NCBI GenBank assembly: GCA_016931055.1
Contig: JAFGFL010000091.1
Span: 42,108 to 106,107 of the forward strand
DNA: 64,000 nucleotides
Direction: 5' to 3'
From: Candidatus Omnitrophota bacterium
GTDB taxonomy: Bacteria > Omnitrophota > Gorgyraeia > Zapsychrales > Zapsychraceae
Shown here: positions 27,109 through 46,901 of the stretch, one piece after another
Position numbering within the stretch: position 1 is the first letter of the stretch
Layout: each line of letters opens with the position of its first letter
Program-made: the position numbers and the translations under genes
Notes under the pieces: generated by a model
What the model saw: the letters and a program-made list of their open reading frames with translations, nothing else
Told to the model about the DNA's origin: nothing
Databases searched by the model: none

Positions 27109-28155
27109 ATGGACAATGTGATTGATATTGCAGGGCGCTTGATCGGGAAGGATTATCTTCCGTTTGTGATTGCGGAAATTGGTATTAATCATGAGGGAGA
27201 CATGGACAAGGCCATCCGGATGGTGGATGATGCCAAAGCGGCCGGTTGTGAATGTGTCAAGTTCCAATGCCATGTGATTGAGGATGAAATGGTCCCCGCG
27301 GCAAAATCTGTTATTCCCGGGAATACGACTGAGAATATCTGGGACATCATGGCCAGATGCGCATTGACGGAAAAAGAAGATATCCGGCTGAAGAAATATG
27401 TTGAGTCGAAGAATATGATCTATCTTTCGACGCCGTTTTCCCGCGCGGCTTCCATAAGGTTGGAGAAGATGGGTGTCGCGGCCTATAAGATTGGGTCGGG
27501 GGAGTGTAACAATTATCCGCTAATTGAACACATTGCTTCCTATGGGAAACCGGTGATCCTAAGCACGGGAATGAATGACGTGTCTTCTATTAAGCCTGCG
27601 GTCGGGATTCTTAGGAAATCAAGAATTCCTTACGCCTTGATGCATTGCACATCCATATATCCGACGCCTTACAGTAAAGTACGGTTGGGGGCGTTAACTA
27701 TTCTTCAGAAAACTTTTTCGGATGCTGTCGTTGGATTAAGTGACCATTCTATGGGCATTTATACATGTCTGGCTTCGGTGGTTTTAGGAGCAAGCATTCT
27801 GGAAAAACATTTCACTTCGGATATAAGCTGGCCAGGGCCCGATGTGCCTATATCCATGGATCCGACGGATTTGAGAAACTTGGTGGAAGGGGCACGCGCT
27901 ATTCATCAGGCTTTAGGCGGGAACAAAGCGATCCTTCCGGAAGAGAAACCTGCGATTGATTTTGCGTACGCGACGGTTGTTTCCATTCGCAATATTGTCA
28001 AAGGTGAATCTTTGACGCGCGAGAATATCTGGGTCAAACGGCCCGGAACGGGACGGTTATTGGCGAAGGATTTTAGTCGTTTGTTAGGCAAGAAGGTAAA
28101 ACGCAATATTGCTGCCAATCAGCATATTCAACCGGAGGATGTCATTGGACTTTGA
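27109..28155 (+). CDS. nonulosonic acid synthase, NeuB/PseI/LegI family (copy 1)
   Basis: FVIAEIGINHEGD, CVKFQ, C-terminal SAF domain (VVSIRNIVKGESLTRENIWVKRPGTG); the ATG at 27109 lies inside the track ORF that starts at a GTG at 27097. Confidence 0.8.
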   Translation: MDNVIDIAGRLIGKDYLPFVIAEIGINHEGDMDKAIRMVDDAKAAGCECVKFQCHVIEDEMVPAAKSVIPGNTTENIWDIMARCALTEKEDIRLKKYVESKNMIYLSTPFSRAASIRLEKMGVAAYKIGSGECNNYPLIEHIASYGKPVILSTGMNDVSSIKPAVGILRKSRIPYALMHCTSIYPTPYSKVRLGALTILQKTFSDAVVGLSDHSMGIYTCLASVVLGASILEKHFTSDISWPGPDVPISMDPTDLRNLVEGARAIHQALGGNKAILPEEKPAIDFAYATVVSIRNIVKGESLTRENIWVKRPGTGRLLAKDFSRLLGKKVKRNIAANQHIQPEDVIGL

Positions 28156-29122
28156 TCTGCGACAGTACAGGGCGCTTGTGACCGGGGCTTCGGGGGTTTT
28201 AGGATTGCGTTTAAGTGAGCAATTGCTTAACGCCGGAGCCGAAGTCGTTGGATTCGATCTGGATGGAATGAGTAAACCGCTGCGGACTTTGTCAGGAACT
28301 CATGAAAAGGCGAAAATGATCAGTGGAAATATGTTGGATATGGCCTCGGTGTACGAAGCTGTCAGGATATTGAATCGGCAATCAGGCCGAAAGAGGGCCG
28401 TGTTTCATCTCTCTGCGATGAGTGACGCGAACCAATGCGACGCCGATCCCGAAGAAGCTTTTCGGCAAAATGTTGAGGCGACCGTGAATCTTATGCAGGT
28501 ATGTTCTCAGGAAGGTGTTCAGCGGGTCATATTTCCATCGACGGCTTATGTCTATGGTTCACTGTACAACGAGCTGATCAAGGAGGAGTATGCGATTCAT
28601 CCGGAAAGCGTTTATCCTTTGACAAAACTTTTAGCTGAACAAACGATCCAAGGATACGGAAATATGAACGTGATGAGCTGTGATATTGTCCGGATCAGCA
28701 ATATCTACGGGTCTGGTTCTAAATCAAATACGATCTTAGGGACCATTATGTTCCAAGCTGAGAAGAAAGGCGCGATCTTTCTGCAAAATCTTAAACCGGT
28801 TAGAGATTTTATCTATATTGATGATGTCGTTGACGGATTGAGCAGAATTCTTTTGGCCGGCGATGAGCCAGGGAGCCGTGTATATAATTTGTCAACAGGC
28901 AAAGGAACCTCTGTTGGCGAGTTGGCGCGGGTGTTTTGTCAGTTGAAAGGTCTGTCACCCGAGATGGTGAAATGCAGTGGCTCATCAGGGAAGGAATCAA
29001 GACTGGTTCTTTCCAACGATCTCCTTGAGCGGCGAATTGGTTGGAAGCCGCGATATTCAGTGCTTGAAGGCATACAAAAGACGATCAATGAGTGGGCGGG
29101 GAGGAAATATGCCGAAGCGTAA
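28139..29122 (+). CDS. NAD-dependent epimerase/dehydratase family protein
   Basis: RALVTGASGVLGLRLSEQLL; YPLTKLLAE (YxxxK); start ambiguous (ATG 28139 or TTG 28145 after GGAGG). Confidence 0.6.
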   Translation: MSLDFDLRQYRALVTGASGVLGLRLSEQLLNAGAEVVGFDLDGMSKPLRTLSGTHEKAKMISGNMLDMASVYEAVRILNRQSGRKRAVFHLSAMSDANQCDADPEEAFRQNVEATVNLMQVCSQEGVQRVIFPSTAYVYGSLYNELIKEEYAIHPESVYPLTKLLAEQTIQGYGNMNVMSCDIVRISNIYGSGSKSNTILGTIMFQAEKKGAIFLQNLKPVRDFIYIDDVVDGLSRILLAGDEPGSRVYNLSTGKGTSVGELARVFCQLKGLSPEMVKCSGSSGKESRLVLSNDLLERRIGWKPRYSVLEGIQKTINEWAGRKYAEA

Positions 29123-30296
29123 AATCGCGATATTCACGGGAAACCGCGCTGAGTATGGGCTCCAGTATCCGATCATCAAAGCGGTCGATGTTCATCCAAA
29201 GCTCGAATATTATCTGCTGGTCTCAGGAGCGCATTTGCAGGAGGATTTCGGGTATACCGTCCGGGAAATAGAAGCCAATGGTTTTAAAGTTTATCGTGAA
29301 GTGAAATTGACGATGGGCCGTGATGACCTTTTCGGGACGGTCCAGGCCATCGGTTCGGGAATTCTGAGTTTAAGCGTTATTCTCGATGAATTGAAACCGG
29401 ATATTCTGGTTGTCTACGCGGATCGTTTTGAAGGTTTTGCTGCTGTTATTACCGGAACGCAGATGGGAATACCGACGGCCCACATTGAAGGCGGGGATGT
29501 GACTGAAGGCGGGGCCCTTGATGATTCGGTGCGCCACGCGATGACCAAATTGTCGCATTTGCATTTCACGACGAATAGTGATGCGACAGGGAGAATCAAG
29601 AAACTCGGCGAAGAGCCATGGCGAGTGCACACCGTCGGGTTTCCAGCCATTGATCTGATCTCGGAGAAGAATTACGCTAAACCAGAGGAGCTGGTGGTCA
29701 AATACGGCATCGATTTGGCGCGGCCCGTTGTCTTGTATACGCAACATTCCATCGCGACTGAATTTTCGGACGCGGGTGCCCAAATTGAACCGGCATTGCA
29801 AGCCTTGACAAGGCTGGCGAAGGAAGGGGTCCAGGTTATCATGACTTTTCCCAATAACGACGCGGGAAGCGGGCTCATAATCGATAAGCTCAAGCAGGCT
29901 GGAGCTGAAGCGAAACAAAATATTCAATTGCACGCCAGCTTGGGCCGGTACAACTATCATGGGTTTTTGGCTCATTGCGGAAATGGGGGCAAGGGGGTTT
30001 GTGTTGGGAACTCCTCAAGCGGGATCAAGGAAACGCCTGCGTTCGGATGTCCTACCGTGAACATCGGTGATCGGCAAAGTGGAAGGCTCCGAGCGGAAAA
30101 CGTGCTTGACGTCGGTCACGATGCACAAGCGATTTATCGGGCGATCAGAAAATGCATCGATAACAAACAATTCCGTCAACGGTGCGCCACCTGCAAAAAC
30201 CCTTATGGCACAGGGGATGCGGGTAAAAAGATCGCGGATGTTTTGGCCACAGTGCCCCTTGATCTGAAGCTTTTGCAAAAAAAGATTACTTATTGA
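29109..30296 (+). CDS. UDP-N-acetylglucosamine 2-epimerase (hydrolysing), NeuC/LegG-like (copy 1)
   Basis: KIAIFTGNRAEYG, DILVVYADRFE, HIEGGDVTEGGALDDSVRHAMTKLSHLHF; ATG at 29109 with GGGAGGAAAT RBS. The track ORF from 28977 is a spurious 5' extension through the preceding gene. Confidence 0.75.
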   Translation: MPKRKIAIFTGNRAEYGLQYPIIKAVDVHPKLEYYLLVSGAHLQEDFGYTVREIEANGFKVYREVKLTMGRDDLFGTVQAIGSGILSLSVILDELKPDILVVYADRFEGFAAVITGTQMGIPTAHIEGGDVTEGGALDDSVRHAMTKLSHLHFTTNSDATGRIKKLGEEPWRVHTVGFPAIDLISEKNYAKPEELVVKYGIDLARPVVLYTQHSIATEFSDAGAQIEPALQALTRLAKEGVQVIMTFPNNDAGSGLIIDKLKQAGAEAKQNIQLHASLGRYNYHGFLAHCGNGGKGVCVGNSSSGIKETPAFGCPTVNIGDRQSGRLRAENVLDVGHDAQAIYRAIRKCIDNKQFRQRCATCKNPYGTGDAGKKIADVLATVPLDLKLLQKKITY

Positions 30297-30350: not shown

Positions 30351-30524
30351 ATGGAGGATAATCTGCTAAAAGGGAATTTTGAAGTGAAGAAGCCGATTAA
30401 GCTGGGAGATCAGGAGAAAGAAAAATCTGTCGGCGAAGAACTCAAAAAGAGGGCTTTGGGCACCTTAGGCGGGAGCATGGTTTATATGGAACGGAAGCAT
30501 TTTACCTGGGATGGGGATGAATGA
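30351..30524 (+). CDS. small hypothetical protein (57 aa), translationally coupled to the downstream Maf-like gene
   Basis: Strong SD GGAGGAAGGG immediately before the ATG at 30351; sequence MEDNLLKGNFEVKKPIKLGDQEKEKSVGEELKKRALGTLGGSMVYMERKHFTWDGDE; its TGA stop overlaps the next ATG (ATGA); below the ORF-track length cutoff. Confidence 0.35.
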   Translation: MEDNLLKGNFEVKKPIKLGDQEKEKSVGEELKKRALGTLGGSMVYMERKHFTWDGDE

Positions 30525-31552
30525 TCAATTCAAGCCAAACATTATTCTTTGATCGTATTGTTGACCAGATTTCTGAAATCGGGCTGGATTTTCATGTTAA
30601 TAACATCTTTCAGCATGCCGAGAAGAATTCGGCAGATGTTAAACGGTCCATCAAACAGCTGCCCGCGCTTAAAGGAAATAAAGCGCGCACAGGCATCGTT
30701 ATCAGCGCCGGGCCGAGTCTCCGCAAAAAGAATTCGATCCAAAGAATATTTGACTCCGATTATCAAGGGTCGATTATCGCTATTGATGCTGCTTACATTG
30801 CCTGTCTGAAGGCGGGCCTTATTCCGGATTATGTGGTGACGATGGATCCCAATCCAACCAGAATGGTCCGGTGGTTCGGTGATCATGATTTTGAAAAGAA
30901 TACGGGAAATGATGATTACTATACACGGCAAGACCTGGATGTGGATTTCCGCCGTAATAGTCAGGAACAGAACAGGCGGCATATTGAGCTTGTTAATCAG
31001 CATGGACCTCTCAGTAAGGCTATTATTGCGACATCGGCCCCCAGGAATGTTGTCACCAGGATAAAGGAGGCTCGCCTGGACATGTATTGGTGGAATCCGC
31101 TTATGGATGATCCTACTAGGCAGGGAAGCCTGACGCGCAGACTCTATGAGATGAACGGACTTCCGTGCATCAACACCGGGGGAAATGTGGGGACGACGGC
31201 CTGGATTTTTGCCAATTCGGTCCTGAAACTCCCGCGCGTCGCGATTGTCGGGATGGACCTTGGTTACTATATGGACACGCCGATTGAAATGACGCAGACG
31301 TATTATGAATTGATCCACCATTTGGGGGGACGGGAAAATATCAAGGGATGTTTCAAGGAATATGAATTTCCCCTTGACCAGCAGAAGTATTATACCGATC
31401 CGACTTATTTTTGGTACCGCAAGAATTTGCTGGAGATGCTGGAAAGAGCGCCAGGAAAGACAGTCAATTGCACTGAAGGAGGAACGTTATTCGGTCCGCA
31501 TATCGAATGCGTCCGTCTCGACCGGTTTTTGGAAGAATCTGCTCATGGCTAA
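30521..31552 (+). CDS. Maf-family / DUF115 (MptE-like fold) protein; putative nonulosonic-acid glycosyltransferase
   Basis: GIVISAGPSLRKK...IIAIDAAYIACLKAGLIPDYVVTMDPNP matches the conserved core of motility-associated-factor glycosyltransferases; 343 aa, shorter than Campylobacter Maf proteins. Confidence 0.5.
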   Translation: MINSSQTLFFDRIVDQISEIGLDFHVNNIFQHAEKNSADVKRSIKQLPALKGNKARTGIVISAGPSLRKKNSIQRIFDSDYQGSIIAIDAAYIACLKAGLIPDYVVTMDPNPTRMVRWFGDHDFEKNTGNDDYYTRQDLDVDFRRNSQEQNRRHIELVNQHGPLSKAIIATSAPRNVVTRIKEARLDMYWWNPLMDDPTRQGSLTRRLYEMNGLPCINTGGNVGTTAWIFANSVLKLPRVAIVGMDLGYYMDTPIEMTQTYYELIHHLGGRENIKGCFKEYEFPLDQQKYYTDPTYFWYRKNLLEMLERAPGKTVNCTEGGTLFGPHIECVRLDRFLEESAHG

Positions 31553-33143
31553 AATATTAATAATCAATCCGGTTATTCGCGAAGATGATGAACCCAAGCA
31601 CATCCCTTACGGGCTTGCTTTGTTAGCCAGTATCGCGATGGGACAAGGGCATCTTGTCCAGGTTTATGATGAGAACGCGTGGAGAAAAGGCGATGAGGTG
31701 ATCGCAAAAGTCTGTCAGGCTGATTGTTGGGACGCGATCGCCACCGGTGGATTAACGACGACTTACCGGTCGATTAAAAAGATATTGAACATATGCAAAG
31801 CAAATGCGCCGGAGGCCTTTGTGATCGCGGGTGGGGGGTTCTTCACGAGCATGCCTCATGAAATGATGCGATGGATCCCGGAAATCGATTTGGGGGTGAT
31901 CGGAGAAGCTTTTGTCACCTGGCCGGAGGTTTTAGGAAAAATCGACTCGAAGGATTTTGATTTTTCCCGTACGTTGGGAGTGTGTTATCGGGAGGGTAAT
32001 GAAACAGTACTAACGGGAGTCCGTCCCAATATCAAGGACTTGGACAGGCTGCCGTATCCCGCGTGGGATTTGTTTCCATTGGATATTTATTTCAGAAATT
32101 CCGCATTGTCTTTAAGCGAGGTGGCTTTCCGTTCCAAGAGACGCATGGACATTATGGGAAGTTTAGGGTGCGGCATGGTTTGCAAGTTTTGCTGGCATTT
32201 GGGGACGACGGGCGACATGATCGTTGACGAAAATGATGAAGGGAAAAAGGATGTGCGTTTTACTTACGGGCGTAATATCCGTTATTTTAGCCCCCGCTAT
32301 ATCGTGGAAATGGTGAAAACCCTGGTGCGTAAATATGGGGTTGATTTTGTTTATTTTATCGATGAGAATTTTATGACGATGGATATGGCGAGCGGACGGA
32401 CTTGGTTGAAGGAACTTTGTGAATGTTGGATCAAAGAAGGGTTACAGCCTATGTCGAGGCGCCAGGGATTGCCGGATGAAGAAAATGAGGGAGGGGTGTT
32501 TTGGTCCGGGACGAGCCATGCGGGCCTCGCGTACAGGGATATCCTGGATTTAATGTATCGGGCGGGTTGCGCTTCTTTGGTTTACGGGACCGAGTCGTTC
32601 GATCCGGAAATCCTTAAGAACCTCGGAAAAGGGGTCAATCAGCGACAGAATATCGATGCGCTTAAGACATGCATGGATTCAGGAATTGTTCCCATTCCGA
32701 ATATTATGATCGGTTTCCCTGAGGAAACATTTAAGAGTATCCGCACGACGATTGAATGGATGATTAAGTTAGGCATCCATAGCAAGCCCCATTTTGCCAC
32801 TCCCTATCCAGGATCGGAGTGGTACTACACCTATAAAGACAGTATTATCGAGCAATATAACGGTGATCTGGAGGCTTTTATTAAAGAACTTGGTGATGCG
32901 ATGAAGCTGACGGCCGTCATATCACATAATTTTTCTCCGTTGCAACTTCTTGGTTTGCAGCAAATTGTCATGCAGCGTGACCTGCGGTTGCTGGACCTGG
33001 CGGAGAAGCACTGGGGAGAGGCAGGTACTTTGACCAAGACAATCGCGGAACCCAGGAATTCATTTAACATCATCAAAAGAAAAATCCAGGCTCCTATAGA
33101 GGGGCAAAAAGAAAGAAATAACCCAAATCATGTTAATCGCTGA
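31545..33143 (+). CDS. cobalamin(B12)-binding-domain radical SAM enzyme (class B) #1
   Basis: N-terminal B12-binding fold KILIINPV...IPYGLALLASIAMGQGHLVQVYDEN; radical SAM cluster CGMVCKFC (CxxxCxxC). True ATG at 31545 (ATGGCTAA overlap with the upstream stop); the track ORF from 31362 is an artefactual extension overlapping the Maf-like gene. Confidence 0.75.
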   Translation: MAKILIINPVIREDDEPKHIPYGLALLASIAMGQGHLVQVYDENAWRKGDEVIAKVCQADCWDAIATGGLTTTYRSIKKILNICKANAPEAFVIAGGGFFTSMPHEMMRWIPEIDLGVIGEAFVTWPEVLGKIDSKDFDFSRTLGVCYREGNETVLTGVRPNIKDLDRLPYPAWDLFPLDIYFRNSALSLSEVAFRSKRRMDIMGSLGCGMVCKFCWHLGTTGDMIVDENDEGKKDVRFTYGRNIRYFSPRYIVEMVKTLVRKYGVDFVYFIDENFMTMDMASGRTWLKELCECWIKEGLQPMSRRQGLPDEENEGGVFWSGTSHAGLAYRDILDLMYRAGCASLVYGTESFDPEILKNLGKGVNQRQNIDALKTCMDSGIVPIPNIMIGFPEETFKSIRTTIEWMIKLGIHSKPHFATPYPGSEWYYTYKDSIIEQYNGDLEAFIKELGDAMKLTAVISHNFSPLQLLGLQQIVMQRDLRLLDLAEKHWGEAGTLTKTIAEPRNSFNIIKRKIQAPIEGQKERNNPNHVNR

Positions 33144-34950
33144 GCAATCTGACCAAGATCAACAACAGCATCCGTCAATCAACAAAGCAGTGAAAACCCT
33201 GTTTATTACCTTGCCCCAAAGAGATACGCCCGGGACATATCCGCCTTATGGCGCGTTAACGGTCATGAGCTATCTGAAGCGAGCGGGTTTTTCTAATGTC
33301 ACTCTTTACAATATCGATCTTATGCGGCCGACGATGAAGGAGGCTATAAATTATATCGCCGATTTTAATCCGGAAGTTTTATGTATTAGCGCCCCTGTTT
33401 CAACAGCTTACGGGAATTGCAAACAGGTGACTCTTGAGATCAAGAAGTGGTTGCCGCAAACGAAAATTGTTCTGGGAGGGAATTTGGCGGCGAGTGCGGA
33501 GATTATTCTCAGAAAGACGGGGGTGGATATCTGTGTTTTAGGTGAAGGGGAGATTGCCTGCGCTCAGCTTCTTGAAAAATTGTCACAACATTGTCCGATC
33601 AACGAGTTGAAGGCCATTAAAGGGTTGGGATTTCTTGATGAGAAAGGCGTGTTTATCAACACGGGCTACGCACAGCAGCTCCTGATGGATCAGGTCTATG
33701 ATATTGATTGGGATGTGTGGGATGACTTTTCTTTAAAGAAGTGTTTCCGTCAATTAAAGGAAATAGATCCCAAGTCTACTTACTACAAATATTACACGGG
33801 GATCGGCGGCCAGATCAGCAGTGACAAACGGGAAACCAGGATAGCTATCCTTCCTTGCTCAAAGGGGTGCGTCGCGCGCTGTACGTTTTGTCATCGGTGG
33901 CAAAAAGGCATTCGTTTTATCCCTCCAGAGATCATGATCCAGAGGATTAAATTACTTATGGACAGTTATCAAGTCGGAGTTGTCAACATATCTGATGAGT
34001 GTTTTGGCGCTGATGTTAAATGGTTGCATGAATTCTGCGCTTTGATCAAACCCTTGGGGTTGATTTGGGTTGTGGGCGGGATGAGGGTCAAACAGATCAC
34101 CTCTGAGATCGTTTCAATGATGAAAGACGCCGGTTGCCGTTCCATTGTTTACGGAATGGAGACCGGCAGCAAAAGGATGATTGAGGTAATGGAAAAACGG
34201 GCATCTATTGAAGATAACGAACGGGCTTTTCGGTTGACCCTGGAGGCAGGTTTGCAGACAATCCCCCAATTGATCATCGGCATGCCCGGTGAAAATCCGG
34301 AGACGATCAAGGAATCCGCCGATTTTATTTCTAGGAATATGATTTTGGATAAACACCAAAATCCTCGTGAAGTCAGCATTAACTATGCTCAGGCTTTGCC
34401 TGGGACCCCTCTTTATGAATTCGCCCGGCAGAAGGGGTTGATCGGGAAAGGTTTGGATGAGGAAGAGCGGTATCTTTTGCATATTTCTGACCGGAATGCG
34501 TGTGATGATGAAACGACGCTCAATTTTACCGATTATCCATATCTGACGCTGGTTTCCTGGAGGAACATTATTCTGGCCACGATGAAGTATCGATATGCGA
34601 AAGCGTTCGGCATTTCCCATTATAACAAGGTTATGTTTCCTGATGGCCGGCCCGGTCTCTGGTGTTTGCTTAAGAGCCGGAATTTCGGTCTGCTTCTCGA
34701 CCGTTTTCCCCGGTTGACTTTCAGGTTAAGACATTGGATGGAGTTCTTCAAATTTATTGATATTTGGAAGAAACGAGGGCTGAAGATCGCGGGTGGTTTT
34801 CTGGTTGAATTTTTTGTTGTTCATTTAAGGCGGTGCCGGAAAAAACATTCGGATTTCGAATATAAATCATTACGGAAGATCATCGGACAAGACGCCTCTT
34901 ATCCTTGCGAGGAAAGCGATCCGATGGCTTCCCTGCGAAAAGGCAGGTAG
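33130..34950 (+). CDS. cobalamin(B12)-binding-domain radical SAM enzyme (class B) #2
   Basis: B12-fold N-terminus (LFITLPQ..YPPYGALTVMSYLKRAGF..); CVARCTFC (CxxxCxxC); 606 aa; overlaps the upstream gene by 14 bp. Confidence 0.75.
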   Translation: MLIAEQSDQDQQQHPSINKAVKTLFITLPQRDTPGTYPPYGALTVMSYLKRAGFSNVTLYNIDLMRPTMKEAINYIADFNPEVLCISAPVSTAYGNCKQVTLEIKKWLPQTKIVLGGNLAASAEIILRKTGVDICVLGEGEIACAQLLEKLSQHCPINELKAIKGLGFLDEKGVFINTGYAQQLLMDQVYDIDWDVWDDFSLKKCFRQLKEIDPKSTYYKYYTGIGGQISSDKRETRIAILPCSKGCVARCTFCHRWQKGIRFIPPEIMIQRIKLLMDSYQVGVVNISDECFGADVKWLHEFCALIKPLGLIWVVGGMRVKQITSEIVSMMKDAGCRSIVYGMETGSKRMIEVMEKRASIEDNERAFRLTLEAGLQTIPQLIIGMPGENPETIKESADFISRNMILDKHQNPREVSINYAQALPGTPLYEFARQKGLIGKGLDEEERYLLHISDRNACDDETTLNFTDYPYLTLVSWRNIILATMKYRYAKAFGISHYNKVMFPDGRPGLWCLLKSRNFGLLLDRFPRLTFRLRHWMEFFKFIDIWKKRGLKIAGGFLVEFFVVHLRRCRKKHSDFEYKSLRKIIGQDASYPCEESDPMASLRKGR

Positions 34951-38284: not shown

Positions 38285-38551
38285 ATGAAGGAAAGGGAAG
38301 CTGAAAGCATGAATGATCAAAATGAGAAAATAAGGAAAATATTCGCCGATGTTCTCGGCATTCCGGTTGAAAAAATTGATGATGACCTTCAATATAATTC
38401 TATCCCTGAATGGGATTCCATCGCGCATATGGCGCTGATCACGGCGCTTGACAAATCCTTCGATATAATGATTGAAACGGAGGATATCATTGACATGAGC
38501 AGTTTCGGAAAAGCCAAAGAAATCCTTCAGAAATATGAGGTTGTCCTATGA
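38285..38551 (+). CDS. acyl carrier protein
   Basis: 77-88 aa; IPEWDSIAHMALI carries the DS(I/L) phosphopantetheine-attachment serine; an alternative ATG at 38309 has a better RBS (AAGGAAAGGGAAG). Confidence 0.7.
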   Translation: MKEREAESMNDQNEKIRKIFADVLGIPVEKIDDDLQYNSIPEWDSIAHMALITALDKSFDIMIETEDIIDMSSFGKAKEILQKYEVVL

Positions 38552-39294
38552 AGACGATGGAAGGAAAGATTGTTTGGGTGACCGGCGCTTCAAGAGGTAT
38601 CGGGCGGGCCACTGCCTTAATGTTTGCCAAGGAAGGCGCCACTCTGATTCTCAATGCGCGGGAAGAAGGCCATTTGAAGGAAATTGACGCTCAAGTCAAA
38701 GAAGTTTCAGGGAATGCGCCGGTCCTTCTGGGTTACGATGTTTCTGATCCCGTGAAAGTCAAAGACAGCTTTCACCTGATCCATAAGAAGTTCAAGAAAC
38801 TGGATGTGATGGTGAACAATGCCGGAATCCTGGAGGATTCGTTGTTAGGGATGCTTAGCCCTGAATTGGTGACAAAGATATTCTCGACCAACGTGTTCTC
38901 GGTTATTTATCATATGCAATATGCTTCACGATTGATGGCGAAGGATGGAACGGGAAGCATTATCAATGTGAGTTCCATCATCGGCCGTTTGGGCAATGAG
39001 GGACAGGTGGCTTACGGCGCGAGCAAAGCCGCTGTCATCGGGGCGACATTGTCGGCGGCGAAGGAACTCGCGCCGGCGGGCATCAGGGTGAACGCGATTG
39101 CTCCCGGATTTATTGATACGGACATGGTGAAACAGCTGTCGCGTGAGAAATATGATCAACGTTTAGCGAGCATTAAAATGAAAAGGCTGGGGAGTCCGGA
39201 GGAAGTCGGAAAAGTGATCTTCTTTCTGGCTTCTGACGCGGCTTCCTATGTCACGGGTCAAGTGATCGGGATTGATGGGGGCATGCTGGTATGA
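38548..39294 (+). CDS. 3-oxoacyl-ACP-reductase-like SDR (FabG-like)
   Basis: VWVTGASRGIGRATA, NNAG, YGASKAAVIG (YxxxK), PGFIDTDM. Confidence 0.8.
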   Translation: MKTMEGKIVWVTGASRGIGRATALMFAKEGATLILNAREEGHLKEIDAQVKEVSGNAPVLLGYDVSDPVKVKDSFHLIHKKFKKLDVMVNNAGILEDSLLGMLSPELVTKIFSTNVFSVIYHMQYASRLMAKDGTGSIINVSSIIGRLGNEGQVAYGASKAAVIGATLSAAKELAPAGIRVNAIAPGFIDTDMVKQLSREKYDQRLASIKMKRLGSPEEVGKVIFFLASDAASYVTGQVIGIDGGMLV

Positions 39295-40697
39295 ATTTCT
39301 GGGATTTATCACATTCGGGAAAGAGCATTGTTGTCAATAACAGTGAAACCCGGAAGAACTATAGTTATTTGGAATTCCAAGATCGGGTGGATGCTTTCAA
39401 GGCGGAAATGGCGGCACAAAACACCAAAGGGAAAACGTTGGGATTCATCTTTTGCAGGAATTCGCCTGCCGCTTTGGCTGGATATCTGGCGGCTTTGCAG
39501 GGAAAACAAGCCGTTTGCCTGTTAAGCGTTCAATTAGCGGATTTTCTGAGGGATGAATTGATCCGGATTTACCAGCCTGATTGGATATGGGCTCCGTCGG
39601 AAATGGGGGCTTTACCAAATAATTATGATGGAAAGAGGGAATGGGAGGGGTATAGATTGTCTTGTATCTCGCGGGAATCTAAGGGGACGGAAATTCATCC
39701 GGATCTAGCTGTTCTTCTTTCGACATCCGGAACGACCGGAACTCCCAAAATGGTGCGTTTATCCTACCGGAATCTTCAGGCAAACGCCGAATCCATCGCG
39801 GAATATTTGAGGCTGACGTCCAATGAATGCCCGGTGACGACCTTGCCCATGCATTATTCCTACGGACTGTCTGTTGTGAACAGTCATTTACAGGTGGGGG
39901 CGACCTTATTGCTGAATAACCATGACATGATGACAAGGTCGTTCTGGAATTTATTCAAGGAAGAGAACCCTACCTCTTTCGCCGGAGTGCCTTATACCTT
40001 TCAAATGCTTCATCGATTGAAGTTTGAACAAATGCAGCTTCCGTCGTTAAGGACAATAACCCAAGCAGGAGGGCATCTGGATGTTCAATATCAGGAATAT
40101 TTTCAGAAAGCGTGCGGCCGGATGAATGTCAGGTTCTTTGTGATGTACGGCCAGACAGAGGCGACCGCGCGGATCAGTTATATTCCTGTCGAGAAACTTT
40201 CTGATTGTTTGGGTTCTATCGGGATTTCGATACCCGACGGGCGGATGGAAGCAGACCCGGAAACGCAGGAATTAATATACCATGGACCAAACGTCATGAT
40301 GGGATACGCCGAAAGCCGCAAAGACCTGAACAAAGGGGATGAATTAAACGGTCGGCTAAGAACGGGGGACATTGTCAGGCAGGATGAAAGAGGTCATTTC
40401 TATATTCAAGGGCGGTTGAAACGGTTTATCAAACCATTTGGATTGCGCGTGAACTTGGATGACCTGGAGTCGATGATCAAGAAACGATTCCAGAAAGCTT
40501 GTTATTGCACAGGGGATGATTCTCATTTGCTCATTGCCGTTCCGCATGAGAATTTAACCCAGGAAGTCAAAAACCTGATGGTGGATACGTACGGAATGAA
40601 ATTGTCCACATTGAGAGTTTCCACTCTGACGGATATTCCCCGTCTGGAAACGGGTAAAGTCAATTATGCGGCACTGAAGGACGCTCTGCTTAAATGA
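39291..40697 (+). CDS. AMP-dependent synthetase/ligase (acyl-ACP/CoA ligase, adenylate-forming)
   Basis: LLSTSGTTGTPKMV (AMP-binding P-loop), YGQTEA, GD.V..DE.G.F...GR C-terminal motif. Confidence 0.8.
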   Translation: MNFWDLSHSGKSIVVNNSETRKNYSYLEFQDRVDAFKAEMAAQNTKGKTLGFIFCRNSPAALAGYLAALQGKQAVCLLSVQLADFLRDELIRIYQPDWIWAPSEMGALPNNYDGKREWEGYRLSCISRESKGTEIHPDLAVLLSTSGTTGTPKMVRLSYRNLQANAESIAEYLRLTSNECPVTTLPMHYSYGLSVVNSHLQVGATLLLNNHDMMTRSFWNLFKEENPTSFAGVPYTFQMLHRLKFEQMQLPSLRTITQAGGHLDVQYQEYFQKACGRMNVRFFVMYGQTEATARISYIPVEKLSDCLGSIGISIPDGRMEADPETQELIYHGPNVMMGYAESRKDLNKGDELNGRLRTGDIVRQDERGHFYIQGRLKRFIKPFGLRVNLDDLESMIKKRFQKACYCTGDDSHLLIAVPHENLTQEVKNLMVDTYGMKLSTLRVSTLTDIPRLETGKVNYAALKDALLK

Positions 40698-41779
40698 ATC
40701 TGGAACGCTTTTTTCAAGAGGAACCATTCGCTTGGGGTGCTGATGAGAAAAACGGCATCTTATCGGACGCGCTGTGGAAATTAACGGAAAAACACAGGAA
40801 GGCCTGTGAGATGTACCGGCGGATCCTGGAAGCGCTGCCGAACGGCACATTCAATTCTAAACGGATCGATCAGGTGCCGACGCTTCCGATCGGGCTTTTT
40901 AAACGGTATGACTTAAAAAGTGTTTCTCCTAAAGCTGTTGTCCGGGTCCTGACATCGAGCGGAACGACTTCGCAGACAGTGTCCCGTATTTTTCTGGACA
41001 AAGAAACATCTGTTCTTCAGACCAAAGCGTTGACGTGTATTATGCGGTCATTTATCGGACCCAAGCGGTTGCCGATGATCTTGGTGGACAGTCAAAATGT
41101 CCTGGAGAGGAAGGATTCCATGAACGCCCGCGGGGCCGGCCTGGTTGGTTTGAGCCTGTTTGGCCGGGATCACTTTTACATGCTGGACGAATCCATGCGT
41201 GTCCGTTGGGAAGAACTGGGAGCTTTCCTTAAGGAACATGCTGGTGAGAAAATCCTTATTTTTGGATTTACATCGATGATTTGGCAATATTTTCTGGAAG
41301 AAGCAAGGGCGGGAAAACGTGATATCTCTGTGCGAAATGGCCTATTGGTCCATGGCGGCGGTTGGAAGAAATTACAGTCACTGGGGATATCAAACGATGA
41401 ATTTAAGAAAGCGATCAGAAACCAGTTCCAGATTGAGCAGATTCACAATTTTTACGGGATGGCGGAACAGGTGGGTTCCATATTCATGGAATGTGAACGC
41501 GGCTATCTCCACGTTCCGAATTGTTCCGATATAATCATTCGGGATGGGCGTTCTCTGGAAGCGCTGAGGAACCGGAAAAAAGGGATCATTCAGGTGTTGA
41601 GCGTTTTGCCCCAAAGCTATCCGGGGCACAGTTTGCTGACGGAGGATGAAGGGATGATTGAGGGAGAAGATGATTGTCGTTGCGGACGCAAGGGAAAGTA
41701 TTTCCAGGTTCTTGGCCGTTTACCTCAAGTCGAATTACGCGGATGCAGTGATGTTTACGCTTATGGAGAAAGTCACTAA
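40694..41779 (+). CDS. LuxE-like acyl-protein synthetase family protein
   Basis: About 360 aa; VLTSSGTTSQTVSRIF resembles the LuxE SSGTTG acyl-adenylate motif; sits next to the ligase and a LuxC-like gene. Confidence 0.5.
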   Translation: MNLERFFQEEPFAWGADEKNGILSDALWKLTEKHRKACEMYRRILEALPNGTFNSKRIDQVPTLPIGLFKRYDLKSVSPKAVVRVLTSSGTTSQTVSRIFLDKETSVLQTKALTCIMRSFIGPKRLPMILVDSQNVLERKDSMNARGAGLVGLSLFGRDHFYMLDESMRVRWEELGAFLKEHAGEKILIFGFTSMIWQYFLEEARAGKRDISVRNGLLVHGGGWKKLQSLGISNDEFKKAIRNQFQIEQIHNFYGMAEQVGSIFMECERGYLHVPNCSDIIIRDGRSLEALRNRKKGIIQVLSVLPQSYPGHSLLTEDEGMIEGEDDCRCGRKGKYFQVLGRLPQVELRGCSDVYAYGESH

Positions 41780-43005
41780 TGGAAGTATTATCGCCTGCAA
41801 ATGTCAAAGCGATGGATTACCAGGAGATTTTGGAAAGCATTCTAAAACGGGAGCCGTTTAAACCGTTTGATCCCGTCCTGATGGCGTTTGCCAAAGATGT
41901 TTCGGATGCCGTATTGAGCGACCGTCATTTTCGCGGTTACCCTGACATGATGGCGGCGGCTCACTGGATGCGGGCAAGTCATATAAAGGAGGTTCGCGAG
42001 AGATATGAATCCAGGCGGCAGGGACGGATTTGGCTGCCGAGAGGGACGGTCGTGCATTTTGCTCCGGCGAATGTGGATACTGTTTTTATTTACTCATGGA
42101 TTATTTCTTTTCTTCTGGGCAACAAAAACATCATCCGGCTTTCTCAGGGGAGAGGTCAGCAAGTGAACGCGTTTCTTCAGGCGGTCAATGGATTGCTCGA
42201 GAATAAGCGATACCAGCCGGTGAGCGACCGGAATATGTTTATCTGTTATGGGCATGAGGAGACGGTAACGGGAAGCCTTTGCGCTCAGTGCGATGTGCGT
42301 GTTATTTGGGGGGGGGATGAAACGGTTCGTTTGATCCGGCAGGTACCGCTGCCGCCTTACGCGACGGAAATCGTTTTTGCGGACAAGTTTTCTTTGGCGG
42401 CCATAAAAAGTAAGGCTGTCACAATATCGACGGAGAATGATTTGAACGATCTCGCTGGAAAATTCTATAATGATGCCTTCTGGTTCAATCAGAACGCCTG
42501 TTCATCACCGAGAATGGTTGTATGGATCGGTTCCAAGAGTGATAATGAGAGAGCGAAGAAGCTGTTTTGGGACGCGCTAAAGAAAGTAATTGAAAGAAAT
42601 GGCCTCAAGGAGGATGTGGCGGTCGGGTTGAACAGGATGTTGACGGGATACAGTTTTGCCGCTGAAGGATTAGCGGATCGATTGTCCTCTCAGGGGACGG
42701 AGAGGCCGTACCGTTTGCATATTAATGATTTAAGCGACCGGGTTAGGACGCAGCATGCTGGCGGCGGTGTATTCCTTGAAATGGAACTGTCCTCATTGTC
42801 CCTGCTAACCAGGCATGTGACTCGCAAGGATCAAACGTTATCTGTTTATGGATTTGACAAAGATGAATTGTCCGAATTCTCATCAGGTTTATTAAACGGA
42901 GGCGTGAACCGGGTCGTTCAGGTTGGGCAAGCGCTTGAGTTTGATTTGATTTGGGACGGATTTGATTTGTTTACTTATCTTTCGCGTGAAATCACGGTGA
43001 AATAA
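41779..43005 (+). CDS. LuxC-like acyl-CoA/acyl-protein reductase family protein
   Basis: About 408 aa, overall aldehyde-dehydrogenase-like; HFAPANVDTVFIYSWIISFLLGNKNIIRLSQ, VIWGGDETV; genomic context with LuxE-like/ACP/ligase as in the V. cholerae O1 rfbKLMNO genes. Confidence 0.45.
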   Translation: MEVLSPANVKAMDYQEILESILKREPFKPFDPVLMAFAKDVSDAVLSDRHFRGYPDMMAAAHWMRASHIKEVRERYESRRQGRIWLPRGTVVHFAPANVDTVFIYSWIISFLLGNKNIIRLSQGRGQQVNAFLQAVNGLLENKRYQPVSDRNMFICYGHEETVTGSLCAQCDVRVIWGGDETVRLIRQVPLPPYATEIVFADKFSLAAIKSKAVTISTENDLNDLAGKFYNDAFWFNQNACSSPRMVVWIGSKSDNERAKKLFWDALKKVIERNGLKEDVAVGLNRMLTGYSFAAEGLADRLSSQGTERPYRLHINDLSDRVRTQHAGGGVFLEMELSSLSLLTRHVTRKDQTLSVYGFDKDELSEFSSGLLNGGVNRVVQVGQALEFDLIWDGFDLFTYLSREITVK

Positions 43006-43017
43006 TGCAAGGGACCT

Positions 43018-44037
43018 ATGCCTAATAAGAAAAATACTCATGTTATGATCATCGCCGAGGCGGGTGTTAACCACAATGGAAACTTGGAGACGGCGTTGCG
43101 GCTGGTTGATGAGGCGGCATGTGCGGGTGCCGATGCCGTTAAATTCCAGACTTTTATTGCCGAAGCGGGTGTCAGCAAGTTCGCGCCGAAAGCCGAATAT
43201 CAGAAGAGAACCATGGGGAATGAGGAATCGCAACTGGAAATGGTCAAGAAGCTTGAACTGGATGAAAACGCGCACAGGAAATTGATGCAACGCTGCAAAC
43301 AGAAAGATATCCTTTTTCTTTCGACACCTTTTGACAGGGGAAGTATTGAATTGCTTGATCAGCTTGGACTGGAGATGATCAAAATTCCTTCCGGTGAGAT
43401 CACGAATCTTCCATATCTGCGAAAGGTCGGGGCCTTGAAGAAAAAGCTCATTCTTTCGACCGGCATGTCAACCCTCAAGGAAATCCGGGTGGCGCTCCGG
43501 ATACTGGAATCCTCAGGGACGCCAAGGAGCCGGATAACAGTTCTTCATTGCAATACCGAGTATCCAACTCCCTACGAGGACGTGAATCTTTTGGCCATGT
43601 TGACGATCAGAGACAAGTTGGGTGTTAAGGTCGGTTATTCCGATCATACTCTAGGCGTTGAAGTTCCTATTGCGGCGGCCGCTTTGGGCGCGTCGGTTAT
43701 TGAAAAACATTTTACTCTTGACCGGACGATGCCCGGACCCGATCATATAGCTTCCATTGAACCAGATGAACTGAGGCAAATGGTTTTGGCCGTGAGAAAT
43801 ATTGAGAAAGTCCTGGGGGATGGTACTAAAAAGGCTTCGCCTTCTGAACAAAAGAATATTCCTATCGCTCGTAAAAGTATTGTGGCTGATAAAGACATTG
43901 CCAAAGGGGAAATCTATTCCGAGAGTAATATTACAATCAAAAGGCCAGGAACGGGGATCACTCCTATGCAATGGGACCATGTGTTGGGCATTCCATCCAA
44001 AAGAAACTTTTGTAAAGATGAATTGATTGAATTATAG
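43018..44037 (+). CDS. nonulosonic acid synthase, NeuB/PseI/LegI family (copy 2)
   Basis: VMIIAEAGVNHNG, AVKFQTF, LSTPFD, C-terminal SAF domain (SIVADKDIAKGEIYSESNITIKRPGTG). Confidence 0.8.
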   Translation: MPNKKNTHVMIIAEAGVNHNGNLETALRLVDEAACAGADAVKFQTFIAEAGVSKFAPKAEYQKRTMGNEESQLEMVKKLELDENAHRKLMQRCKQKDILFLSTPFDRGSIELLDQLGLEMIKIPSGEITNLPYLRKVGALKKKLILSTGMSTLKEIRVALRILESSGTPRSRITVLHCNTEYPTPYEDVNLLAMLTIRDKLGVKVGYSDHTLGVEVPIAAAALGASVIEKHFTLDRTMPGPDHIASIEPDELRQMVLAVRNIEKVLGDGTKKASPSEQKNIPIARKSIVADKDIAKGEIYSESNITIKRPGTGITPMQWDHVLGIPSKRNFCKDELIEL

Positions 44038-44103: not shown

Positions 44104-45741
44104 ATGAGTAAACCAAATATGCTATTCATTTCACCACCGGATATACCTATCGAAGAAATTAGGAATACGAATACACCGACGGCACAGTGGGCAACGAACA
44201 TTTCCATGAAGATGGGGATCTTATCGCTTGCGGCCTATACTTTAAAGCATGTGGATGCACAAATCCGGATTATTGATCTTGGTCTCGAGATTTCAAATAA
44301 TGAGGATAGTTTTAAAACGATGATATGGGAGGAGTTTTTACGTCTGACCATGTCGAAAGTGTTTGATTCAGAACTTCCTGAGATTGTCGGGATATCGGCT
44401 CTTTATAACTCCAATGCAGGATATATGGAACTTATTGCTTCAACCGCAAAAGTTTTATGGCCGGGAGTCTTGGTTATTGCGGGGGGTATTTTACCGACCA
44501 ATTATTATCGTTATGTTCTTGATGAGGCCCCGAGTATCGATGCCATCGTAATCAAAGAAGGAGAGAAGCCTCTTGTTGGGCTTCTTACAGCCGGTGATAA
44601 GAAAGAATACCTTGCTGGGGCAAAGGGATGGATGACAAGAGAAAGGCTTCATGAAGAGCCAACCATGGACTTAATCAATGATCTCGATGAAATCCCGTTC
44701 TTTAGATATGACCTGATTGATTTCGATGCTTATCAGAAATTGAATCGTTACCATGGTGAGCGCTCGTCTGATTCAATTGCTGTATCGGTGATGACAACAC
44801 GGGGATGTCCCTATGGATGTTGTTTCTGCGCATCACATACGGTCCATGGAAAGAAAATAAGACGACATAGTTCTGAACGTGTTTTGAATGACATCCATAA
44901 ACTAAAGGAATTATACAAAGTGAATATCATTTTGATTGAAGACGATCTTTTTTTTATTCAGAAAGAGTATGCGCTTGAGGTGTTAAAGGGCATTTCAAAA
45001 ATGAATTTGACCATTGAATTTCCAAACGGGATTTCCATCCAACATATGGATGAAGAAATGGTGGATGCTTTAAAAACAGCCGGCCTTAAAATGGCAACAC
45101 TAGCTGTGGAATCAGGGAGTGAGCGTGTGCTCAATGAAATCATTCATAAACCATATAAGAAACTATCAAGAGTGAAATATGTTGTTTCTCTTTTGCGAGA
45201 ACGGGGAATATATGTTCGGGCTGGTTTTATAATTGGTTTTCCGGGAGAAACGATGGAAGAGATTCTTGAAACTAAGCGGTTCATGAAAGAAACAGGCTTT
45301 AATTGGGTGCAGATATTTATTGCTACACCGTTAGTCGGATCTGAACTTTATGATATCTGTAAGAAGAACGAGCTGCTGATATCTGACAGTCTCGAGAAAT
45401 TCCATTTTGGGCAATCTAACATAAGATTATCACATTCAACTTCCGAAGAATTTGTTAACCTTCGATATTTGATGAATTTGGAAGTCAATTTTGTTGATAA
45501 TTATGATTTAAGGAATGGTAGCCCGCAAGTTGCACTGATTGGATTTCTCGATGTAATCAATCGGGTCCCCAATCACGCGTTTGCTTACTATTTTGCCTCT
45601 CAATGTTATGAAAAGATGGGAAAGGAAGATCTATGCCGTGAGTATCAAGCAAAGTATAGAGAGATTGTTCTTGCTTCAAGCGAATGGATGGGATACACAA
45701 AACACTTTAATCTTCCAATTGGGGAAATGGCTGAATTATGA
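44104..45741 (+). CDS. cobalamin(B12)-binding-domain radical SAM enzyme (class B) #3
   Basis: B12-fold N-terminus (MLFISPPD...GILSLAAYTLKH); CPYGCCFC (CxxxCxxC); 545 aa. Confidence 0.75.
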   Translation: MSKPNMLFISPPDIPIEEIRNTNTPTAQWATNISMKMGILSLAAYTLKHVDAQIRIIDLGLEISNNEDSFKTMIWEEFLRLTMSKVFDSELPEIVGISALYNSNAGYMELIASTAKVLWPGVLVIAGGILPTNYYRYVLDEAPSIDAIVIKEGEKPLVGLLTAGDKKEYLAGAKGWMTRERLHEEPTMDLINDLDEIPFFRYDLIDFDAYQKLNRYHGERSSDSIAVSVMTTRGCPYGCCFCASHTVHGKKIRRHSSERVLNDIHKLKELYKVNIILIEDDLFFIQKEYALEVLKGISKMNLTIEFPNGISIQHMDEEMVDALKTAGLKMATLAVESGSERVLNEIIHKPYKKLSRVKYVVSLLRERGIYVRAGFIIGFPGETMEEILETKRFMKETGFNWVQIFIATPLVGSELYDICKKNELLISDSLEKFHFGQSNIRLSHSTSEEFVNLRYLMNLEVNFVDNYDLRNGSPQVALIGFLDVINRVPNHAFAYYFASQCYEKMGKEDLCREYQAKYREIVLASSEWMGYTKHFNLPIGEMAEL

Positions 45742-46901
45742 AAAAAATATGTATTATTACTGGATCACGGGCGGAATACGGGATTCTCAGGCCTTTGATC
45801 GAAGAAATTAAGAATGACGGCAGTCTTGAACTGCAATTGCTGGTTACAGGGATGCACCTATCGACGGAATTCAATCTCACTTTTCAGGAGATAGAGAAGG
45901 ACGGATTTCCGATCAGCGAAAAAATTGAGACGCTGCTGAGTTCTGATACACCTGTCGGCATCTCAAAATCGATGGGATTGACTATCATCAGCTTCAGCGA
46001 AGCCTACGAGCGACTGAAGCCTGACCTCATTGTTGTCCTTGGGGACCGATTTGAGATTTTCAGCGCTCTTGTTCCGGCTCTGATTTGCGGGATCCCGGTG
46101 GCGCACATTGCCGGCGGCGAAATAACGCAAGGGGCTTTTGATGACGCCTTGCGTCATTCCATCACTAAAATGAGCCAGATCCATTTTACGGCGACCGAGG
46201 AATACAGAAAAAGGGTCATTCAATTGGGCGAACATCCTTCTACGGTCTTTAATGTCGGAGCCCCGGGGATCGATGCCATCCAAAAGACGCGATTCTTGAC
46301 CAGAGAAGGATTGAAGAAGGAACTGGGGATTGGCTTTAACAAGCGAAATCTGCTTATTGTATTTCATCCGGCGACCTTGGAGAAGAAAACGGCGTCCAAA
46401 GACCAATTCAGGGAGATACTTTCTGTTTGTGACGAACTCAAAGACACGAATATGTTTTTTGTTAAATCAAACGCGGATACCCATGGCCGGATCATCAACG
46501 CGATGATTGATGAATATGTCGCGGTCAATTCCGAGACAACATGGGCATTTACATCGTTAGGGCACGAAAAATACTTGTCTCTTCTGCGGCAGGTGGACGG
46601 CATGATAGGAAATTCTTCAAGCGGTATTGTTGAAGCGCCCAGTTTGAAGGTGGGCACGATCAATATCGGAGACCGGCAGAAGGGAAGAGTCCGGGCCCAA
46701 AGCGTCATCGACTGTGAGGCGACAAAAGGGGCGATAAGGAAGGGGATTAAGACGTTGTATTCAGCGGCCTATCAAAGAAAACTAAGAAATGTTCTCAATC
46801 CCTATGGGAAAGGGAACGCGGCAAAATCGATCAAGGGAATCATTAAATCATATCAGTTGAACAATATTGTTAAAAAGAAGTTTTATGACATCAAGGGATA
46901 A
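45738..46901 (+). CDS. UDP-N-acetylglucosamine 2-epimerase (hydrolysing), NeuC/LegG-like (copy 2)
   Basis: KICIITGSRAEYG, DLIVVLGDRFE, HIAGGEITQGAFDDALRHSITKMSQIHF; colinear with copy 1. Confidence 0.8.
   Translation: MKKICIITGSRAEYGILRPLIEEIKNDGSLELQLLVTGMHLSTEFNLTFQEIEKDGFPISEKIETLLSSDTPVGISKSMGLTIISFSEAYERLKPDLIVVLGDRFEIFSALVPALICGIPVAHIAGGEITQGAFDDALRHSITKMSQIHFTATEEYRKRVIQLGEHPSTVFNVGAPGIDAIQKTRFLTREGLKKELGIGFNKRNLLIVFHPATLEKKTASKDQFREILSVCDELKDTNMFFVKSNADTHGRIINAMIDEYVAVNSETTWAFTSLGHEKYLSLLRQVDGMIGNSSSGIVEAPSLKVGTINIGDRQKGRVRAQSVIDCEATKGAIRKGIKTLYSAAYQRKLRNVLNPYGKGNAAKSIKGIIKSYQLNNIVKKKFYDIKG

Follow-up and report, generated by a model that had tools for sequence, protein, structure and literature searches.

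The 64-kb stretch of DNA analysed here (64,000 nucleotides from a Candidatus Omnitrophota bacterium, hereafter the window) carries two sets of genes for the synthesis of nonulosonic acids, each with a NeuB-type synthase and a NeuC-type hydrolysing 2-epimerase. The window is an unbroken array of + strand genes, to which all genes described below belong. Set 1 is a triad made of NeuB1 (27109-28155, with an alternative GTG start at 27097), a GalE-like extended short-chain dehydrogenase/reductase (SDR, 28139-29122) and NeuC1 (29109-30296). Upstream of it lie a single open reading frame (ORF) in which HisF/WbuZ and HisH are fused (24407-25873), and a WbuX-family N-acetyl-sugar amidotransferase (25863-27092). 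Set 2 is ordered NeuB2 (43018-44037), a B12-binding radical S-adenosylmethionine (SAM) enzyme (44104-45741), NeuC2 (45738-46901), a DegT-family aminotransferase (46905-48137), a conserved 395-aa protein (48128-49315) and an extended SDR with a CBS domain (49325-50752). It is preceded by a NeuD/PglD-family N-acyltransferase (37619-38278, alternative start 37577) and by a cassette predicted from family matches to build acyl groups, which consists of an acyl carrier protein (ACP), a FabG-like reductase, an AMP-ligase and LuxE-like and LuxC-like proteins (38285-43005). An earlier reading of the sequence alone (the original prediction) had placed an amidotransferase pair next to set 1, and a NeuD-like gene between the sets; both placements agree with these positions, and the acyl cassette also lies between the sets.

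Gaps between genes range from -70 to +66 bp over the interval 20.6-59.3 kb, 4-bp overlaps are frequent, and promoter-like and terminator-like motifs are no commoner than in shuffled sequence. This spacing is consistent with co-transcription, and with both sets lying in a single co-transcribed array. As the window belongs to a metagenome-assembled genome (MAG), an assembly or binning error could in principle have joined two sets from separate genomes. However, GC content (about 0.46) and GC skew (positive throughout) are uniform, and the gene overlaps are continuous. An independent Logan assembly (SRR13394437) holds a 54,966-bp contig on which the SDR of set 1 is found together with set 2, at 100% identity, so that the juxtaposition is not an assembly artefact. 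The gene order is also shared by a related organism, on a single contig of 59,137 bp (loci L089 and L091). As independent contigs agree, a chimera was ruled out, and the chance that such an error explains the layout is negligible.

The two synthases and the two epimerases

The reference sequences were neuD, neuB, neuA and neuC of E. coli K1 (from ATCC 11775), and N. meningitidis NeuB and A. baumannii LegG (from PDB alignments). NeuB1 and NeuB2 share only 36% identity. NeuB1 is closest to N. meningitidis NeuB (53% identity, 409 bits to 1XUU; 34% to K1 NeuB), and NeuB2 to K1 NeuB (49%, versus 37% to N. meningitidis NeuB). On the model TIGR03569 (cutoff 399.65) NeuB2 scores above the cutoff with 498 bits and NeuB1 below it with 363.9 bits. 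Both proteins have the NeuB TIM barrel (PF03102) and the C-terminal SAF/antifreeze-like domain (PF08666), and an AF2 model of NeuB1 has a pLDDT of 93.6. In N. meningitidis NeuB the metal is bound by H215 and H236, the catalytic residues are E25, E134 and E234, phosphoenolpyruvate (PEP) is bound by K53, K129 and S213, and R314 comes from the SAF domain. All of these, as well as Q55 and D247, are conserved in NeuB1 and NeuB2, and both are predicted to be intact PEP-condensing synthases.

Homologous loci were sought by scanning genome contigs with a NeuB alignment, and 80 GTDB loci were retained among the matches listed. A bootstrapped neighbour-joining tree of 92 NeuB sequences, from which two very divergent ones had been left out, splits with 100/100 bootstrap into 73 sequences of an N. 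meningitidis type, among them NeuB1, and 19 of a K1/LegI type, among them NeuB2.

The two epimerases are about as distant from each other (35% identity), and both exceed the cutoff of TIGR03568 (235.9), with 380 bits for NeuC1 and 475 bits for NeuC2. NeuC2 resembles the crystallised A. baumannii LegG (5XVS/5ZLR; 329 bits, 45% identity). NeuC1 is 36% identical to LegG and 30% to K1 NeuC. The columns invariant between LegG and K1 NeuC (DRxE, H125, GG, D138, RH, K147, H213 and GNSS.G) are kept in both copies, and both would fit the LegG role of hydrolysing 2-epimerase, on substrates that are predicted ones. In the NeuC tree the partners of bare N. meningitidis-type cassettes form clade A (57 sequences), of which five have a DegT, NeuD, NTP-transferase or LegB-like gene within 10 kb. 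NeuC1 falls outside this clade (93/100 bootstrap), with LegG, K1 NeuC, NeuC2 and the partners of NeuB2-type genes. On that side of the split, 13 of the 16 GTDB members have DegT, NeuD, NTP-transferase or LegB-like neighbours. Within it NeuC1 belongs to a divergent subclade whose only other members come from L089, from L090 (another Omnitrophota MAG) and from L054 (a Betaproteobacteria MAG; 100/100 bootstrap).

Identities of 35-36% and membership of different subfamilies mean that the copies are not recent duplicates, and a recent duplication was therefore ruled out. Pseudogenes were likewise ruled out, by the intact catalytic residues of the NeuBs and the intact invariant columns of the NeuCs. 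The original prediction of two diverged, intact NeuB/NeuC sets thus stands, since the copies are nowhere near 90% identical and no inactivating substitution was found among the key residues.

A pseudaminic acid (Pse) pathway was also rejected. Pseudaminic synthases have a Phe in the motif KIxSFE (PMC7371886), which is replaced by Gly (KIxSGE) in both NeuB1 and NeuB2. The two proteins score 224.8 and 277.1 bits on the PseI model TIGR03586, below its cutoff of 340.25. No PseG match was found among about 50 window proteins scanned with NCBIfam, in which no score on the PseB model exceeded 81.5 bits (cutoff 407.75), so that there is no PseG or PseB equivalog among them. Position 184 has been proposed to discriminate between products (Asn or Tyr for neuraminic, Tyr for legionaminic and Ser for pseudaminic acid, PMC7371886), and failed to classify either copy, as NeuB1 has Ser and NeuB2 Thr. 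Likewise, similarity to proven N-acetylneuraminic acid (Neu5Ac) synthases at the level of 49-53% does not separate specificity for neuraminic acid (Neu) from that for legionaminic acid (Leg).

Gene neighbourhoods and their conservation

The nearest relatives of NeuB2 are 65-70% identical to it, and many are labelled N,N'-diacetyllegionaminate synthase by JGI. One of them, in Campylobacter hyointestinalis (68% identity), is accompanied by genes for a Polysacc_synt_2 dehydratase, DegT, two PglD-type acyltransferases, a formyltransferase and NeuC. The NeuB2-type genes of Clostridium and other GTDB genomes adjoin genes for a CMP-synthetase, a NeuC2-type epimerase, NeuD, an NTP-transferase, a LegB-like SDR and DegT. 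The window has corresponding genes. NeuD (TIGR03570, 175 bits, cutoff 160.8) would take the LegH role, and the DegT next to NeuC2 the LegC role (DesI 319 and LegC family 190 bits, both below cutoff). Further downstream lie a LegB-type NAD-dependent 4,6-dehydratase (56643-57701; TIGR04180, 489.7 bits, cutoff 475), with homologues of 56-61% identity beside NeuB2-type genes in Clostridium loci, and a sugar-1-phosphate nucleotidyltransferase without CBS domains (57694-58413; PF00483 132.9 bits, guanylyltransferase-like 144.9 bits), a candidate for the PtmE role. All genes of the pathway listed in the original prediction are present, but these last two lie outside the span it had given. Taken together, the relatives of NeuB2 and NeuC2 and the DegT, NeuD, LegB and nucleotidyltransferase context point to a legionaminic-type route, and set 2 reads as such a pathway.

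The DegT gene after NeuC2 is kept in L091 and in L076. It is always followed by a homologue of the 395-aa protein, which itself had no match in local Pfam or NCBIfam: in L091 this position holds a 394-aa ORF without a recorded Pfam match, and L076 has a homologue of 28% identity. The CBS-domain SDR next to it has the motif 'SSCSVYG' without the Asp-Glu pair, as in an epimerase or reductase.

Set 1 has a different neighbourhood. The fused HisF-HisH protein (TIGR03572 WbuZ 266.6, hisF 281.9 and hisH 209.9 bits; NF038364 'acetamidino modification' 195) is predicted to supply glutamine-derived ammonia for acetamidino formation, and WbuX (TIGR03573, 361.4 bits, cutoff 203.2) to play a PtmG/PseA-like role. 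The SDR between NeuB1 and NeuC1 has GalE-type proteins as its best PDB matches (about 100 bits). It contains the motifs GxxGxxG and YPLTK (YxxxK), and in 'STAYVYG' it lacks the Asp-Glu pair of 4,6-dehydratases, so that it is predicted to be an NDP-sugar epimerase or reductase. Its family is rare: a search of 5.8 billion proteins gave only 56 relatives at E <= 1e-20. A GalE-like SDR stands between an N. meningitidis-type NeuB and NeuC in all four of the window, L054, L089 and L090.

In L090 the genes ahead of the triad encode a LegB-like SDR (53% identity), a CBS-NTP transferase, a Gfo/Idh/MocA protein, a CMP-synthetase and an adh_short protein, which by family correspond to LegB, PtmE, PtmF, LegF and PtmA of C. 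jejuni, and DegT genes lie on either side of the triad. In L054 genes for a CBS-NTP transferase, WbuX, HisF, HisH and a CMP-synthetase come after the triad, whose flanks also hold DegT, NeuD, a formyltransferase and an AMP-ligase. Both neighbourhoods speak for a 5,7-diamino product of set 1.

The dual layout itself is conserved. On the 59,137-bp contig of the related organism (L089 and L091), the order of the window is kept from an APH-like kinase through NeuB1, SDR, NeuC1, a 58-aa ORF, an MptE-like protein, two B12 radical-SAM enzymes, the CMP-synthetase, the 629-aa protein described below, NeuD and ACP, up to NeuB2, NeuC2, DegT, the 395-aa type of protein and an SDR. The compared proteins of the core modules are 51-78% identical, and the NeuD homologue 33%.

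This conservation bears on the alternative that the sets are redundant isozymes for the same nonulosonate, one of them acquired horizontally and kept without a distinct role. The single NeuA-type CMP-synthetase and the single NeuD would fit redundancy, and different subfamilies are what horizontal acquisition would give. Yet catalytic residues are all kept in both sets despite 35-36% identity, set 1 has its own dedicated rare SDR, and the paired layout is preserved in a relative with only 68-78% protein identity, which argues that both sets are under selection. We therefore regard mere redundancy as very unlikely.

Two differences between the window and its relative stand out. The HisF-HisH fusion and WbuX (24407-27092) are absent from the 59,137-bp contig: the same junction, between an ATP-binding cassette (ABC) exporter and NeuB1, holds no such genes in L089 (8912-8926), which suggests that the acetamidino function is an insertable accessory. 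The acyl cassette between NeuD/ACP and NeuB2 is also exchanged, L091 (3767-9924) having MaoC/ketoreductase (KR), ketoacyl-ACP synthase III (KAS III), KR, FkbH-like and methyltransferase genes. This swap suggests lineage-specific N-acyl groups on a common sugar backbone. Both differences suggest that the backbone machinery is fixed and its decoration modules exchangeable, N-acyl groups being set by the ACP cassette with NeuD and acetamidino groups by WbuX with HisFH.

Two NeuB genes were found together in three of the 80 GTDB loci, one of them L010 from Desulfopila sp., and likewise in L002 and L005. L010 has two NeuB, two NeuC and two CMP-synthetase genes. As in the window, a NeuB2/NeuC2-type set with DegT, NeuD and NTP-transferase lies beside a NeuB1-type set with WbuX, HisFH and a B12 radical-SAM gene. 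In contrast to the window, each set in L010 has its own CMP-synthetase, an SDR is missing, and the NeuC beside the NeuB1-type gene comes from the common clade A.

Predicted products, decorating enzymes and further sugar modules

We hold with moderate confidence that the cluster encodes two parallel branches leading to two distinct legionaminic-type nonulosonates. The two pairs are both intact and represent different subfamilies, the triad recurs in L089, L090 and L054 (in the latter two with leg/ptm-type neighbours), and NeuC1 groups with LegG-type partners instead of the usual partners of N. meningitidis-type NeuB. The original prediction had proposed either two different 5,7-diamino nonulosonates or one highly decorated derivative. 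The latter does not account for the presence of two synthases, each of which builds a whole C9 backbone. The former is the best-supported reading, with set 2 LegI/LegG-like and accompanied by DegT, NeuD and LegB, and with the set-1 triad in leg/ptm contexts; the pseudaminic option that it had included is excluded. For set 1, a second 5,7-diamino sugar bearing an acetamidino group is the best reading of the gene content, and Neu5Ac its main rival.

According to this rival, set 1 makes the true sialic acid Neu5Ac from UDP-GlcNAc, possibly amidinated to Neu5Am, and only set 2 is legionaminic-type. Several observations count in its favour or otherwise weigh against two legionaminic-type products. 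NeuB1 is most similar to a proven Neu5Ac synthase, and its sugar-contact positions are nearly all as in N. meningitidis NeuB, the main change being N184S; with a pocket so close to that enzyme, a Neu5Ac-type product can be envisaged. NeuB1-type proteins carry the JGI label N-acetylneuraminate synthase, and in most cases among the 80 GTDB loci a NeuB gene of the N. meningitidis type is part of a bare CMP-synthetase/NeuB/NeuC cassette that lacks DegT and NeuD; about one fifth of these cassettes also have WbuX, with or without HisFH. The NeuB tree includes no biochemically characterised LegI, whether of the N. meningitidis-type clade or of the other. E. coli K1 NeuC, which acts on UDP-GlcNAc, also falls inside the LegG supergroup, so that clade membership alone cannot fix the substrate. 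None of the three DegT proteins of the window passes the LegC model TIGR04181 (163-190 bits, cutoff 420), and a single NeuA-type synthetase faces two products. Finally, peaks consistent with Neu5Am have been described in C. jejuni (preprint 10.64898/2026.04.20.719630), and the rival would match the Neu and Leg combination of Leptospira or C. jejuni. On the other hand, NeuC1 lies outside the clade usually paired with this type of NeuB, the same triad is found inside the leg/ptm-type gene sets of L090 and L054, and the Neu5Ac route needs no NDP-sugar SDR such as that between NeuB1 and NeuC1. Neither set, nor any of the homologous triads, is a stand-alone NeuC-NeuB-NeuA cassette, as all lie amid DegT, NeuD, SDR and LegB genes. 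A Neu5Ac-type set 1 therefore appears possible, if rather unlikely.

If set 1 does make a second 5,7-diamino sugar, both branches would probably draw on one pool of NDP-2-acetamido-4-amino-2,4,6-trideoxyhexose. Judging from family scores, LegB and the nucleotidyltransferase would supply NDP-4-keto-6-deoxy-HexNAc, DegT would aminate it and NeuD would acylate the aminated sugar. The donor for NeuD may be acetyl-CoA, or an acyl group from the adjacent ACP, prepared by FabG, AMP-ligase, LuxE and LuxC. Branch 2 would proceed through NeuC2 and then NeuB2, as a canonical LegG/LegI pair. Branch 1 (NeuC1, the GalE-like SDR and NeuB1) would handle a hexose of different configuration or acylation, the SDR probably epimerising or reducing the NDP-sugar prior to its hydrolysis. 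The single NeuA-like enzyme would then form the CMP-sugar or sugars, and WbuX with HisF-HisH would convert an N-acetyl into an acetamidino group, probably on the CMP-sugar, as in Campylobacter. The MptE-like and PFTS-like proteins, glycosyltransferases and the ABC exporter would place the sugars on a surface glycan.

The NeuA/LegF/PseF-like CMP-nonulosonate synthetase (34960-35682; PF02348, CTP_transf_3) is 32% identical to K1 NeuA, scores 127 bits on PseF (below the cutoff of 205.7) and belongs with the set-1 module by synteny with L089. It is the only NeuA-type CMP-synthetase within the window. The original prediction saw only one CMP-synthetase, which is correct for the interval 27-47 kb; however, a KdsB-subfamily cytidylyltransferase (NF009905, 303 bits, cutoff 255) is found at 2028-2837. 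It lies 25 kb upstream, in a separate module (424-7243) together with an HpcH/HpaI-type aldolase, a methyltransferase, a Gfo/Idh/MocA protein, a GmhA-like SIS isomerase, a 2-hydroxyacid dehydrogenase, a FabG-like SDR and an AroB-related sugar-phosphate cyclase (TIGR04425, 441 bits, cutoff 400). From its families, this module may serve to produce a cyclitol or else a third sugar acid activated with CMP.

Three B12-binding radical SAM enzymes accompany the sets, two of them between NeuC1 and the CMP-synthetase (31545-33143, with CxxxCxxC at residue 209, and 33130-34950, with CxxxCxxC at residue 247). The third, between NeuB2 and NeuC2, has CxxxCxxC at residue 235 and a score of 171 bits on NF038361, below cutoff; it is missing from this position in L091. 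Related genes flank NeuB1-type genes in L005, L008, L009, L010, L012, L089 and L090. These enzymes may C-methylate the sugar or its acyl group. A literature search found no paper pairing nonulosonic acids with radical SAM enzymes. A bolder proposal is that the triad and the adjacent radical-SAM methylases make an undescribed nonulosonate, either a new 5,7-diamino stereoisomer or a C-methylated 'higher-carbon' ulosonic acid, the neighbouring LegI/LegG set giving an ordinary legionaminic derivative. Higher-carbon ulosonic acids have reportedly been detected recently as CMP-sugars in Magnetospirillum, and we know of no genes for them. We consider this proposal unlikely.

Between NeuC1 and the radical SAM genes lie a conserved 57-aa ORF (30351-30524), matched by the 58-aa ORF at the same position of L089, and a gene for an MptE-like (Maf-type) protein (30521-31552; PF01973 60.4 bits, PseD domain 44.8 bits), a candidate CMP-nonulosonate transferase for which a PDB sequence search gave nothing usable. 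An MptE-like gene follows the triad in L089 and L090 as well. After the CMP-synthetase comes a 629-aa protein (35679-37568), a candidate transferase or polymerase, which had no match in local Pfam, NCBIfam or PDB. Its homologues are tagged PF27878 (PFTS_polysacc), as is the one in L089 (51% identical), and also come after a CMP-synthetase. A literature search on PFTS found nothing relevant.

Other sugar genes occur elsewhere in the array. The region 15623-20604 holds an APH-like kinase, a split transketolase (N- and C-terminal halves as separate genes), an SDR, a Zn-alcohol dehydrogenase and a methyltransferase; these genes are syntenic upstream of the NeuB1 module in L005 and L089, and could extend a sugar by two carbons or add a two-carbon branch to it. 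At 10216-15047, an HldE-like protein with reversed domains (adenylyltransferase, then kinase) precedes an SDR and a tandem pair of DegT aminotransferases, which looks like a further amino-sugar or heptose branch of the same array. Finally, glucose-1-phosphate cytidylyltransferase and CDP-glucose 4,6-dehydratase equivalogs (both above cutoff), a 3,5-epimerase-like protein and an SDR (50802-54096) would form a CDP-6-deoxyhexose pathway within the same operon-like array.

Comparison with known systems

Clusters for several nonulosonates are already documented, so that the general picture is unchanged. C. jejuni has three NeuB paralogues in its genome (PMC7371886). Its flagellin locus (leg/ptm: LegB, LegC, LegH, LegG, LegI, LegF, PtmE, PtmF, PtmA, PtmG and PtmH) shares with the window an NDP-HexNAc 4,6-dehydratase, an aminotransferase, an N-acyltransferase, a hydrolysing 2-epimerase, a PEP-condensing synthase and a CMP-synthetase, and both have a WbuX/PtmG-type amidotransferase and a Maf/MptE-like protein. 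C. jejuni is also a case of one organism making more than one nonulosonate (PMC7371886, PMC5378307). However, its second sugar is pseudaminic acid, made via PseG and PseI without a second NeuC, whereas the window has two NeuC and NeuB pairs, with one synthase of the N. meningitidis type, and in addition the GalE-like SDR, three B12 radical-SAM genes and the ACP/LuxE/LuxC cassette. Ac, Am, Fo, Hb and Gra are established as N-acyl variants, and in Campylobacter amidination takes place at the CMP-sugar stage (PMC5378307). PtmG, like ORF28 of L. pneumophila, converts CMP-Leg5Ac7Ac to Leg5Am7Ac (PMC3766260).

In the lipopolysaccharide (LPS) locus of L. pneumophila, Leg5Ac7Ac is the product of NeuC, NeuB and NeuA, and Leg5Am7Ac that of a PtmG homologue encoded next to HisF; the locus also has NeuD and a further NeuB-family gene, ORF9 (PMC3766260, PMC3694923). 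The window resembles this locus in its NeuC/NeuB/NeuA genes, in the amidotransferase beside HisF and in the second NeuB-family gene. In Legionella, by contrast, the precursor dehydratase is encoded outside the locus, for which neither a second NeuC nor an SDR triad, a radical-SAM gene or an ACP cassette has been reported. Leptospira interrogans has several synthases, aminotransferases and CMP-synthetases in one cluster, read by the authors as making several nonulosonates, of the di-N-acetylated Leg type and Neu5Ac (PMC3438082). There, several CMP-synthetases and a synthase-phosphatase fusion contrast with the one NeuA-type synthetase, and no such fusion, of the window.

New here are, on sequence grounds, the three B12 radical-SAM genes, the ACP/LuxE/LuxC cassette and the two NeuC and NeuB pairs. 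One of the pairs is a hybrid, with a synthase of the N. meningitidis type, an epimerase from the LegG supergroup and a rare SDR. No paper joining nonulosonic acids with Omnitrophota was found in a literature search.

Nonulosonic acids set the charge, hydrophobicity and recognition of bacterial surfaces, and knowledge of them comes mostly from a few pathogens. The array of this uncultured Omnitrophota lineage retains two complete synthase/epimerase pairs whose evolutionary origins differ, in a cluster with a swappable acyl-ACP cassette and an optional insertion of amidotransferase genes. NeuB1, SDR and NeuC1 make up a defined, conserved three-gene module with a directly testable product, and the B12 radical-SAM enzymes are unstudied candidates for nonulosonate modification.

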